Source of the DNA: a virus
Virus record (IMG/VR): IMGVR_UViG_3300030397_000598
Coordinates: 2,330 to 66,329 of that record
Direction: 5' to 3' (one strand)
Length of the DNA stretch: 64,000 nt
How positions within the stretch are numbered: position 1 is the stretch's first letter; each line of letters opens with the position of its first letter. The notes beneath the pieces were generated by a model. The model ran no database searches. It was not told where the DNA came from and saw nothing but the letters and a program-made list of their open reading frames with translations. Below are positions 60,583 through 64,000 of this stretch, one piece after another. Both the position numbers and the translations under genes were made by a program.

Positions 60583-62163
60583 TTAAAAAATAGGGTTATC
60601 AGTCCGCGCCGACTCCATAGGGTCGGTGTCCTCCCATGCGTCGGAAGGTCGAGCGATTGGAAACTGCGTGGCCGGTGTCGTTTCGGGTCCTGCAATACCC
60701 GGTATTGGTTCGAATACTTCCAGGGCGTCGAAAGTATGGTCGTCCATATCGACAAATTGGGTTCTGTGACCGATGAATTTCAGCATGATTGTCTTTAAGT
60801 CTCCGCTTCGGTTTTTGGCAAAGATGATCTCTGCCACACCTTTCAGGCTTTGGCCTTCCTCGTCTTCCAGTATGTCATAATATTCGGGCCGATAGATGAA
60901 AATTACCTGATCCGCGTCTTGCTCAATGGCCCCGCTTTCGCGTAGGTCCGACAGTTGGGGTCTTTTGGTCCCTCCCCTTATTTCGACCGCACGGCTTAAC
61001 TGAGATAGGGCTAAAACTGGAATGTCCAACTCTTTTGCTATGGCCTTTAGCTCTCGGCTGATCTCTGCAACTTCCTGCTCCCTAATGCTCTTTCCTTTCC
61101 TTCCTTTGATCTGCATCAATTGCAAGTAGTCGACAATGATCATGTCTATATCGAACATCTTTTTCAATTTCCGGGCTTTACTGCGAAGCTCGAAAGGACC
61201 AATGGCACCAGTGTCGTCGATATAGATATCAGATTCAGAGATTTTTTCAAAGGCATTCAAAAACGCTTGGTGTTCGTGCGCTTCCAACTCTTTGGGATTC
61301 TTGAGTTTCCTAACCGGGATTCCCGTTTCCATCGAAATCATCCGGTGAAAAATCTGAACGTCCGACATTTCCAGCGAGAAAATAGCCACGCGCTTGCCCA
61401 GGTAAAGCGTCGCGTTTAGGGCCATGCTGGTAACGAATGCGCTTTTACCCATACCGGGACGGGCAGCGATTACTATCAAATCGGATTTTTGCCAACCTCC
61501 GGTAAACCGGTCAAGGGTTGCAATCCCTCCCGGAACGCCGGTCAATCCGTCCTCCCGGTTCATTCTATCCTCGAAATCCTTTAGGACCTTTGCACCTATT
61601 TTAGACATTGTTGCCACCTCTTTGGACTGCATCCCTTCCATGATCGAAAAGATGTTTTCCAAAACACTATCCACGACTTCCAGCGGGTCGGCAGTGTCGT
61701 CGTATCCATCCTCAATCAGCGTTGCGCCGACTCCTATTGCGCTTCTGCGGATGTACTTTTGCTGAATGATCCGGCAATGGAACTCAATATTAGCGGCAGA
61801 TGCCACTCGGGTAGTTAATTCGGCCAAGTACCCAGGCCCCCCCACCTCGTCAAGCTTGCCCATTTCTTTGAGCTTTTCCATGACCGTAAGCTCGTCGATG
61901 GGCTGGGACTTCATCCACAGCGAAAGCATTGCCTCGAAAATGTGCCGGTGAGCATCGATGTAGAACGACTCCGAAGACAAAACCGAATACACGACCGGGA
62001 AACCCTCCCGGTCAACCATGCAAGCGCCTAAAACGGCTTGCTCCAAATCCGGGGCTTGTGGGGTTAGCTTCCCAAAAACATATTGGGACAGTTGGTCGTC
62101 TTGAGGGACTACCGGCGTCATTTGCGCCTTGTGTTTCGGTTTGAGTGCTACGGTTGCGGTCAT
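60583..62163 (-). CDS. dnaB: Replicative DNA helicase
   Basis: AARPGMGKSAF, IFSLEMS, IIVDYLQL, LSQLSRAVE, PQLSDLRESGAIEQDAD. Confidence 0.97.
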   Translation of the reverse strand: MTATVALKPKHKAQMTPVVPQDDQLSQYVFGKLTPQAPDLEQAVLGACMVDREGFPVVYSVLSSESFYIDAHRHIFEAMLSLWMKSQPIDELTVMEKLKEMGKLDEVGGPGYLAELTTRVASAANIEFHCRIIQQKYIRRSAIGVGATLIEDGYDDTADPLEVVDSVLENIFSIMEGMQSKEVATMSKIGAKVLKDFEDRMNREDGLTGVPGGIATLDRFTGGWQKSDLIVIAARPGMGKSAFVTSMALNATLYLGKRVAIFSLEMSDVQIFHRMISMETGIPVRKLKNPKELEAHEHQAFLNAFEKISESDIYIDDTGAIGPFELRSKARKLKKMFDIDMIIVDYLQLMQIKGRKGKSIREQEVAEISRELKAIAKELDIPVLALSQLSRAVEIRGGTKRPQLSDLRESGAIEQDADQVIFIYRPEYYDILEDEEGQSLKGVAEIIFAKNRSGDLKTIMLKFIGHRTQFVDMDDHTFDALEVFEPIPGIAGPETTPATQFPIARPSDAWEDTDPMESARTDNPIF

Positions 62164-62197: not shown

Positions 62198-63013
62198 CTA
62201 CCTGAAAATTTTGCCGTCGTCCGGCTTTTTGTATGTCGCTGATTGGGGCTGATCGGCTTTGTCTCGCTTCTGCTTTTCCCTCAAATGCTTTAGGATGAAA
62301 TTCCGGAAGTGCCGATAATCTTTGATTTCAACTTGCCACAACTTCGCTTGATCCATAACTTCCTCAAAAAGATTCTTATCCAACTTCGCCTTAAATTGCC
62401 TTTGGATCTGCTCCGCGAAATTGTAATCCGATTGAAGAGTCAAGAACCATTCTTCCGGCGAATCTCCGGCCAATTCGTTCATTTTGCTTTTTGATACCGC
62501 TTGGCGATCTATGTGCGGTGGTGGTTGGAAATTTTTTTCTTCCGGATTAATATTAAAATTGTTAATACTGTTATTAACCTTATTACTAGTTATTGAAGCG
62601 TTCACTGAGGGTGCAGTGAGTGTTCCGTGAGGGTGCAATGACTGTTCATTGAGTGTGCTTTGAGGGTGCAATGAGTGTTCATTGAGTGTTCCGTGAGTGT
62701 TCACTGACTGTTCAAAATTGCACAAGCTTATCAGGTGTGGGCTGTGCTGGTTTCTGGTCCAGAATACAATCTTGATCACCCCTGCGTCTTGTAACTTGTG
62801 TATAGCCGTTTTAAAGGTAGAACGGTTGCCTATTCCTAGCTCCTCCATAACTTGACTACCATACACGCCTATTTCTTCTTTCCAGGCCAATCTATTGAAC
62901 AGGAAAACCAAGTGATAAAACAGCGCGTGGTGTATCGGCTTCAATCCGCTTGTCTTGAATGATATTTCAACCCAAGCCCTATGCAAGTAGAATATGTTTC
63001 TGTTATTGCTCAC
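62198..63013 (-). CDS. Phage replication initiator (replisome organiser)
   Basis: N-terminal wHTH-like ALFYHL..LGIGNRSTFKTAIHKLQDAGVI; internal iterons; directly upstream of dnaB. Confidence 0.75.
   Translation of the reverse strand: MSNNRNIFYLHRAWVEISFKTSGLKPIHHALFYHLVFLFNRLAWKEEIGVYGSQVMEELGIGNRSTFKTAIHKLQDAGVIKIVFWTRNQHSPHLISLCNFEQSVNTHGTLNEHSLHPQSTLNEQSLHPHGTLTAPSVNASITSNKVNNSINNFNINPEEKNFQPPPHIDRQAVSKSKMNELAGDSPEEWFLTLQSDYNFAEQIQRQFKAKLDKNLFEEVMDQAKLWQVEIKDYRHFRNFILKHLREKQKRDKADQPQSATYKKPDDGKIFR
62548..62715. repeat. Replication origin: ten tandem 11-bp iterons (TGA[G/C][T/G]GT[T/G]Cnn) plus adjacent AT-rich tract
   Basis: 62606-62715 = 10 x 11 bp; AT-rich 62548-62594. Confidence 0.8.
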
Positions 63014-63208
63014 TAGGTAGTTTTAATCCAGTGAAAAAATCACGTCCTGAACAATTACAGGTGAGAAAATTACATCTGATACAATTACATCCCCATTCTT
63101 GACGGGCACCAAACGCCCATAAGTGTAGCTTTGGAAAAAGGTCATCTCCGTAAAATTTGGTCTGATCTCTTAGGAAGGATCAGGATTGAATCAATGTACT
63201 TAAATTAG

Positions 63209-63468
63209 GCAAACAGAAGACAAAGGACCGATTCACCCGGTTTTAGGCTTGAAGCGTTTTACCGCTTCTGCTTCTTCAGTAAGTTCAGCAATCACCTATT
63301 CTTGGGACACCCTACACGGTCTACCAGAGGCCCTACTAGATTATTACGGGCTTGGGTTACTCTTCTGTTTGCTTTGTGAGGAAATCCCGAGTCGAACGGT
63401 ACGAAAAAGAATTGACTAGTATACCCTTTTTCGCGTAAGCACAAGGCAGGACCACTCCGGCGATTCCT
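63209..63468 (-). ncRNA. Candidate structured ncRNA (two domains, one with a T-loop-like GTTCGACT)
   Basis: 12-bp stem 63209-63220/63361-63372 enclosing hairpins; second domain with an 8-bp stem and CCG-TTCGACT-CGG; no ORF of 60 aa or more. Confidence 0.4.
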
Positions 63469-63680
63469 TGGAGTTCTGTCTAGAAAAAAACATCCTTAGA
63501 ACCTGCTCGATTCCCCCGTTTTAAAATGTGGCAGCAACGCAGTATGAAAGAAGTGAAAAAGTGAATAATGTGCTGCCACAAAATATAATCCTATAAACTT
63601 ATGAAGACTTTGAAAAGTGGCAGGGCAGCGAGTGCCCCGCCTCCTACACGCTTTCTCTTTCTACTAATAAAATGTTCTTC

Positions 63681-63753
63681 GGTGAATCGGTGGGGTTCGA
63701 ACCCACATCCCCCGCGATAACTGCGGGATCTTGCCAGTTAGAAGACGATTCAC
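63681..63753 (-). tRNA. tRNA-like gene with a non-canonical anticodon loop (central triplet TTA)
   Basis: GTGAATCG/CGATTCAC acceptor, TCTT/AAGA D-arm, CCCGC-AGTTATC-GCGGG, GTGGG-TTCGAAC-CCCAC; lacks U33, purine 37 and CCA. Confidence 0.6.
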
Positions 63754-64000
63754 ACAGTTCGTCAATTGACGGACCTAGTTCAAAATGCCGTTAGTTTTAG
63801 GCGACTTTTCACCCTTCACTAACAAACAGGCAGACAATCCAAAATACAAGCAAGTGATCCCTATTGATATGCCCTGCCTGTTTAATCTTTCCCCGGCGTT
63901 AACCGGGGCTGAATTACATGAAACAAACAAATTCACATTAAAAAAATTTATAATCCCTTGAAAATTCAGATTCATATTTCAATCTCTACCGGATCTCCAT

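Follow-up and report, generated by a model that had tools for sequence, protein, structure and literature searches.

What is a tRNA-shaped sequence with a nominal ochre anticodon doing in a phage that ends many of its own genes with TAA? The question is posed by an element on the minus strand (63753 to 63681) of the window, by which we mean the whole 64-kb stretch of DNA that was analyzed (it spans 2330-66329 in a virus record of 67,633 bp; positions are those of the window unless marked as genome coordinates). The original prediction had described a tRNA fold whose anticodon loop could not belong to an ordinary decoder, and had offered either a selected tRNA mimic or a weak conditional suppressor as its function. 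On balance, we lean toward a different reading: the element descends from a tRNA but can no longer decode, making it a degenerate member of a phage tRNA cluster in decay.

The element is carried by a temperate phage of Bacteroidota, called temperate because an integrase gene of the tyrosine family is present (Table 1). A large terminase and a tape measure protein are also encoded, and 70 of the 77 non-overlapping ORFs lie on the minus strand. A stretch of ~70 nt is common to both ends of the record (GCATTCTTGGGTACAATACAAGCG...AATAAAACCAC; genome 1-100 and 67500-67633), and the genome is therefore complete; the record is a circle or terminally redundant, though listed as linear in IMG/VR. The nearest matches to the phage DnaB helicase are cellular DnaB proteins of Saprospiraceae (Haliscomenobacter and Phaeodactylibacter, 55-59% identity), as against an identity of at most 48% to any GenBank phage DnaB. 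This affinity points to Saprospiraceae as the likely host clade and to a DnaB gene probably captured from a host. All three stop codons are in use (TAA in 33 of the 77 ORFs, TGA in 26 and TAG in 18), in agreement with the earlier claim that the genome is not recoded.

The element sits in a stretch of ~960 bp without an ORF of at least 80 aa (genome 65343-66300) and is co-oriented with all of its flanking genes. Transcriptionally upstream of this gap are an HTH regulator, a 116-aa gene and a 100-aa gene; downstream are a 271-aa protein and then DnaB. The 271-aa protein is without a PHROG match and has a single full-length relative (36-41% identity, in the phage contig L010 described below), and over 1,300 protein clusters match its first ~110 residues. 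Among 1.84 billion representatives searched exhaustively by profile, full-length members of its family turned up in this phage and in L010, with no third. The protein probably initiates replication and joins a shared DNA-binding head to a tail specific to the lineage. On the upstream side of the element, a 66-aa ORF has neither a PHROG match nor a counterpart in L010, and it may be no gene, because it overlaps a strongly folding stretch (z = -2.4).

Table 1. Positions of the tRNA-shaped element, its parts and its neighbors, and of the tRNA-type genes in the equivalent slot of L010
Feature	Genome	Position	Strand	Rfam score	Description
tRNA-shaped gene, nominal anticodon UUA	This phage	63681-63753	-		73 nt, counting G-1 and the base that follows the discriminator
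5' acceptor strand GUGAAUCG	This phage	63746-63753	-		Paired to 63682-63689 in both the MFE and the centroid fold
D arm	This phage	63729-63742	-		3-bp stem UCU/AGA, loop AACUGGCA; ARAGORN drawing
Anticodon arm CCCGC-AGUUAUC-GCGGG	This phage	63711-63727	-		From sequence and ARAGORN; stem in the MFE and centroid folds
T arm GUGGG-UUCGAAC-CCCAC	This phage	63690-63706	-		Canonical T54 Psi55 C56 R57 A58 pattern
3' acceptor strand CGAUUCA, C73-type discriminator (63682) and C (63681)	This phage	63681-63689	-		From sequence
Weak terminator-like element	This phage	63612-63641	-		9-bp G+C-rich hairpin (63619-63641), then ACUUUUC; from fold
Second, broken tRNA-like unit	This phage	63376-63469	-		Called by ARAGORN only at 80% threshold
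66-aa ORF	This phage	63775-63975	-		Hydrophobic middle; stop 22 nt before the tRNA-like gene
271-aa initiator-like protein	This phage	62198-63013	-		Upstream of DnaB
DnaB helicase	This phage	60583-62163	-		
Tyrosine integrase	This phage	44706-45992			
tRNA-Cys(GCA)	L010	Slot		63 bits	Canonical
t2, second tRNA-type gene	L010	8326-8402		41 bits	Stem CCACC/GGUGG, 11-nt anticodon loop UAUUAAGUUCG
Ile(GAU)-like gene	L010	8406-8554		37 bits	~80 extra nt between anticodon stem and T arm
tRNA-Val(UAC)	L010	Slot		45 bits	One C.U mismatch in anticodon stem

Much of what had been claimed for the shape of the element holds. Sequence, fold and ARAGORN agree on a tRNA shape with well-paired acceptor, D, anticodon and T stems. 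The acceptor strands GUGAAUCG and CGAUUCAC form eight Watson-Crick pairs; ARAGORN draws an acceptor of seven pairs starting from U63752, leaving G63753 opposite C63682 in a G-1:C73-type arrangement. The mark of tRNA-His, a G-1 paired with C73, is thereby present, on an acceptor helix of 8 bp. After the 5' acceptor strand comes a linker of U8 and C9, the base of the D stem carries a U.U, the D loop retains A14, G18 G19 and A21, and the variable loop has 4 nt. Across the acceptor, anticodon, T and D stems, 21 of 21 pairs are Watson-Crick, and the bases of the tertiary interactions are complete: U8, A14, G18G19, A21, T54-Psi55-C56 and A58 are all present in the ARAGORN register. The cloverleaf is predicted at -25.5 kcal/mol, 2.5 kcal/mol above the MFE of -28.0.

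The departures from a normal tRNA lie elsewhere. Read directly, the anticodon loop (63716-63722) is A32 G33 U34 U35 A36 U37 C38, with UUA at 63718-63720, confirming a loop AGTTATC that lacks both U33 and the purine at position 37. The 3' end reads ...CACC GAAG, so that CCA is absent from the encoded sequence, again as predicted. The predicted short linker between the acceptor and the D arm stands only in part: the segment from position 8 to 26 has 18 nt instead of the usual 19, but the missing nucleotide could be placed anywhere within it, and ARAGORN puts the shortage at position 26. Other ways of reading the element fared worse. The plus strand offers a poorer cloverleaf, with GAUAACU as its loop and without a T loop; a reading as a four-base decoder is ruled out by a loop of only 7 nt; and tRNA-Sec, tRNA-Pyl and allo-tRNA readings were dropped because the arms and anticodon are wrong for them. 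With tRNA-Sec, for example, the element shares an 8-bp acceptor and a 5-bp T stem, but tRNA-Sec has a long variable arm, a 6-bp D stem and the anticodon UCA, in contrast to the 4-nt variable loop, 3-bp D stem and UUA found here.

We then have to ask how firmly the element can be called a tRNA at all. ARAGORN, a check that had been proposed along with the original prediction, calls tRNA-Stop(tta) at 63681-63752 as the sole tRNA in the genome. The call is borderline and disappears at -ps105 (105% of the default threshold). Rfam gave no match for the element at the gathering score; the best sub-threshold match was to tRNA-Sec (RF01852), which scored 23 bits where 47 are required (E=0.041 over 601 nt searched, corrected for 4227 families). 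The score for RF00005 (cut-off 29 bits) must be below 23, because the second match of the clan scored lower and was left out. The element is absent from the output of a genome search with RF00005 as the only family, whose loose first-look filter may have dropped it. When we ran ARAGORN on 150 dinucleotide shuffles of the genome (10.1 Mb), it made 1 call, corresponding to ~0.007 expected false calls per genome of this size.

Independent weight comes from where the element lies. The single relative found for this phage is L010, a 62-kb circular phage contig from ENA that was reached through its DnaB; L011, a second contig from the same sample, is identical to it over the relevant slot. The known lineage consists of two genomes. 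They have shared genes in the same order: the HTH regulator (34% identity), an early protein of 105 or 116 aa (57%), the initiator-like protein of 261 or 271 aa (36%), DnaB (59%) and a PAP2-like protein (63%). The intergenic gap of L010 that is equivalent to the one described above (1.1 kb) holds four tRNA-type genes at L010:8142-8684, between an 83-aa gene and the 261-aa gene. Because of these four genes, we identify the slot as the tRNA cluster of the lineage, and aberrant members are normal there. The element occupies the same intergenic slot as the L010 cluster, on the same strand and between the same flanking genes, with early genes before the slot and the initiator and DnaB after it. Given this position and the rarity of calls in shuffled genomes, the tRNA ancestry of the element is established.

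The L010 genes also show how far members of this cluster can stray, as two of the four are aberrant. The second gene, t2, is called by ARAGORN only at a lowered threshold, carries U73 and can alternatively be read as Leu AAG with U37; its oversized loop could reflect decay or a non-triplet reading. In the Ile(GAU)-like gene, both the D and the anticodon arm (loop CUGAUAA) are normal and the top of the acceptor stem has two mismatches; the ~80 additional nt could represent an insertion or else a giant variable arm. The canonical tRNAs of L010 are likewise without an encoded CCA. In Rfam, the element scores 23 bits (as tRNA-Sec), as against 37-63 bits for the four L010 genes. Its D arm is closest to that of t2 (UC-UUCU-AACUGGCA-AGA vs UC-GUCU-AAUUGGUA-GGA). 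Its acceptor stem has zero positions in common with any of the four genes, and blastn of the element against the L010 cluster found no similarity past the T loop. With acceptor stems that differ completely, one-to-one orthology with an L010 gene cannot be claimed, and for this reason we infer the decay from a normal tRNA rather than trace it.

A second tRNA-like unit, 210 nt downstream of the element, is more broken. It has a Val UAC-like loop (CUUACGC, with U33 and G37), the T loop UUCGACU, an 8-bp extra arm (CGAAAAAG/CUUUUUCG) and several mismatches in the acceptor and anticodon stems, and it has no Rfam match at E<=10. An 11-mer, GCCGGAGTGGT, is common to this unit and the D arm of the L010 tRNA-Val; the match between the two, GCCGGAGUGGU, has E=0.39 and is weak evidence. 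What is left in this phage looks like the remnant of a cluster that in its relative still works in part. The argument for decay thus combines an Rfam score below cut-off, an ARAGORN call at threshold, a broken second unit and ~960 bp without an ORF of at least 80 aa. The tRNA region of T4 includes tRNA-like stable RNAs known as 'species 1 and 2'. Mycobacteriophage tRNA gene clusters also include degenerate or tRNA-like members (PMC10264068). Like the slot described here, the clusters of mycobacteriophages and T4 form one intergenic block, oriented like the neighboring genes, in which some members are non-canonical, and the element is a borderline case of the aberrant tRNA genes known from such clusters. 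The difference is that only one borderline and one broken member are left in this phage.

Beyond L010, our searches for orthologs, relatives and a host source covered phage, metagenome and bacterial collections. Against 50,697 phage records, blastn found no match for a 231-nt query, and for the 73-nt query it found T-arm matches only (E ~7); these weak matches of the T-arm half fall on annotated phage tRNA genes. Exact and degenerate acceptor/T-arm patterns had zero matches in IMG/VR, as did the acceptor/T-arm pattern in JGI metagenomes, where a pattern of the anticodon arm plus T loop matched once, in a non-tRNA sequence. A pattern of the T arm plus the 3' acceptor matched three times in 185,579 GTDB species genomes, about the number expected by chance, and none of the three is in a tRNA. 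E. coli genomes held no match to the element. At the protein level, no relatives of the 271-aa protein or TerL were found in IMG/VR, a word-index search with the 271-aa and 116-aa proteins returned only the queries themselves, and the other DnaB relatives, at 49% identity or less, come without the element. Sequencing runs with this DNA belong to three DNA data sets of one aquatic study. The three runs are identical over 62900-64000, at ~130-160x; such identity would tell against decay, but it says little because the samples may be the source of the assembly.

Could the element still read UAA? One might picture an ochre suppressor, weak or conditional, whose occasional reading of UAA extends one or a few phage proteins. 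Classical ochre suppressor tRNAs, such as E. coli supB, supC and supG, have UUA in a 7-nt loop, as does the element, which presents it on a well-paired body. The classical suppressors, however, keep U33 and a modified A37, whereas the element carries G at 33 and U at 37. At position 33, U forms the U-turn of the anticodon loop, and at position 37 a modified A (of the i6A or ms2i6A type) stabilizes the weak A36-U1 pair on which ochre suppressors depend. With the U-turn base and the stabilizing purine both gone, efficient ochre suppression by the element is unlikely. The loop and the unrecoded genome together bear out the earlier view that this is no ordinary decoder. Nor does the genome offer something to suppress: TAA is its most used stop codon, the in-frame open extensions past TAA have a median of 8 codons, no more than chance, with the long ones being neighboring genes that are in frame by chance, and a comparison of this phage with L010 found no conserved target of TAA read-through. 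A fusion of the HTH gene to the 116-aa gene by read-through was considered and rejected, as the spacer in L010 is closed by several stops. We therefore found nothing to sustain the predicted weak conditional suppressor, and consider it very unlikely.

Two further readings fare even less well. Because the phage is temperate and the anticodon arm of the element, a perfect 5-bp inverted repeat with a 7-bp spacer, has the form of many tRNA-borne core sites, the element might be an attP site or its remnant, copying part of a host tRNA gene for the tyrosine integrase. Such a copy should be recognizable in a host tRNA, yet the T arm and 3' acceptor occur in 0 tRNAs across the species genomes searched, and that host tRNA would need to have the same abnormal loop. 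The element also lies 18 kb from int and has a full cloverleaf, including a 5' half for which attP sites have no need; we regard this origin as highly improbable. A chance cloverleaf without tRNA ancestry would fit an ARAGORN call exactly at threshold, an Rfam score below all cut-offs and an RF00005 scan that passed over the element. It would also have to beat the low rate of false calls, land, in the orientation of the flanking genes, within the ~1 kb that a tRNA cluster occupies in the relative, and assemble a canonical T loop, G18G19, U8 and A14, and we give it the least credence of all. A tRNA mimic that does not decode is a stronger contender, although still an unlikely one. Here the fold and its His-type G-1:C73 end would be kept under selection to bind host enzymes (RNase P, the CCA-adding enzyme and perhaps HisRS) or a tRNA-targeting defense nuclease, and the loop would be deliberately unusable on the ribosome or proof against that nuclease, making the RNA a decoy, a sponge or a charged tRNA for non-translational use.

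Several features favor such a mimic. Neither the stems nor the tertiary bases show damage; only the anticodon loop and a junction do. The G-1 pairs with a C at the discriminator position, and a G-1:C73 pair is the hallmark of tRNA-His and the main identity element for HisRS; tRNA-His shares with the element the extra G-1 and the 8-bp acceptor, possibly by coincidence, and differs in having the anticodon GUG in place of UUA. L010 also keeps a gene with an abnormal loop, t2, which scores 41 bits and has the D arm most like that of the element. Pseudo-tRNAs with non-translational roles are known, among them tRNA-Other of Bacillus cereus and the cell-wall tRNA-Gly of Staphylococcus, and they too combine a tRNA fold with features that bar use on the ribosome. 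Their genes are chromosomal and conserved, and their charging has been demonstrated, whereas the element is phage-borne. Phage tRNAs are also known to counter anticodon nucleases through changes in the anticodon loop: phage tRNAs with altered loops escape host anticodon nucleases (van den Berg 2023, PMC10264068), the tRNA-Lys of T5 acts against PARIS (PMC11464382), and a phage tRNA-Tyr acts against retron effectors (PMC11555353). These escape tRNAs resemble the element in being phage-encoded with a deviant anticodon loop, but they still decode and have sense anticodons, in contrast to a stop anticodon in a loop without U33 and R37. Other observations weaken the case for selection. No ortholog appeared in any collection searched, so there is no conservation to point to; a G-1:C73 pair arises by chance in ~1 in 16 cases; the scores are borderline; and the broken neighboring unit and the mixed cluster of the relative fit turnover. 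Intact stems are moreover a precondition of detection, and here the ARAGORN call was at threshold, so the preserved stems from which the original prediction argued for a mimic need not reflect selection. The most specific version, a His-type mimic that is processed, CCA-tailed and perhaps histidylated, that serves as a decoy or sponge for a defense nuclease or a tRNA-binding enzyme and that has a second example in the 11-nt-loop gene of L010, seems to us improbable.

A decaying cluster is the simpler explanation, because the call is at threshold, two of the four genes of the relative are aberrant and the neighboring unit is broken. It has its own difficulties. The defects cluster in the anticodon loop, and random decay should have struck the stems as well, though detection selects for intact stems. 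Useless DNA is usually deleted by phages. Finally, orthology with any of the four L010 genes is not demonstrable, given the wholly different acceptor stems.

If the element is a degenerate tRNA, its history and present fate can be sketched as follows. The lineage would keep a tRNA cluster between its early regulatory and its replication genes, and in this phage the cluster would be in decay. The element still has what an L-shape requires (U8, A14, G18G19, the T loop and the acceptor, anticodon and T stems) and would have lost the positions required for decoding, with U33 replaced by G, the purine at 37 by U, and one nucleotide missing at the junction of the D arm and the anticodon arm. It would share a minus-strand transcript with the early genes upstream of it, forming the tail of that early transcript. 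In the last 2.3 kb, a single TAnnTTTG box of the Bacteroidota type is found on the strand of the element, at genome 67029, upstream of the 116-aa gene; the strand shared with the neighbors and this single upstream box are consistent with co-transcription. A scan for sigma-70 promoters found none, with a model that is not right for Bacteroidota. The transcript would then fold, and RNase P, together with RNase Z or exonucleases, could excise the element, after which CCA would need to be added enzymatically to the trimmed end. The element is probably still transcribed and trimmed in a tRNA-like manner. It would play little or no part in decoding, persisting as a relic or as a passive processing module and not as an ochre suppressor. 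The hairpin of the terminator-like element lies 40 nt after the tRNA-like gene, and was missed by the terminator scan because it is followed by only 4 U.

If the element is only a decaying copy, then threshold calls of 'tRNA-Stop(tta)' in phages with the standard code should not be taken as suppressors or as signs of recoding, and the element records how a tRNA cluster turns over in a Saprospiraceae-type phage lineage that has hardly been sampled. Were the mimic reading true, a non-decoding tRNA decoy would join the counter-measures of phages against tRNA-targeting immunity, which so far are working tRNAs.

The surroundings of the element contain two further sets of repeats. A near-repeat with 12 of 15 positions identical is found at 63227-63241 (-) and 63746-63760 (-), AAACCGGGUGAAUCG vs GAACUGUGUGAAUCG, with the second copy covering the 5' leader and 5' acceptor strand of the element. 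The downstream copy has 11 nt of complementarity to the 3' acceptor end (63681-63691), and the chance of such an 11-mer recurring in the region is ~0.03; this copy may be left over from a duplication or may offer an alternative partner for pairing. Direct and inverted GGCAG/CUGCC repeats occur at 63527-63536, 63571-63580, 63614-63627, 63824-63833 and 63870-63883, on both sides of the tRNA-like gene and upstream of the initiator-like gene and DnaB. They may serve as iterons or operators, or form hairpins, in an origin or control region.
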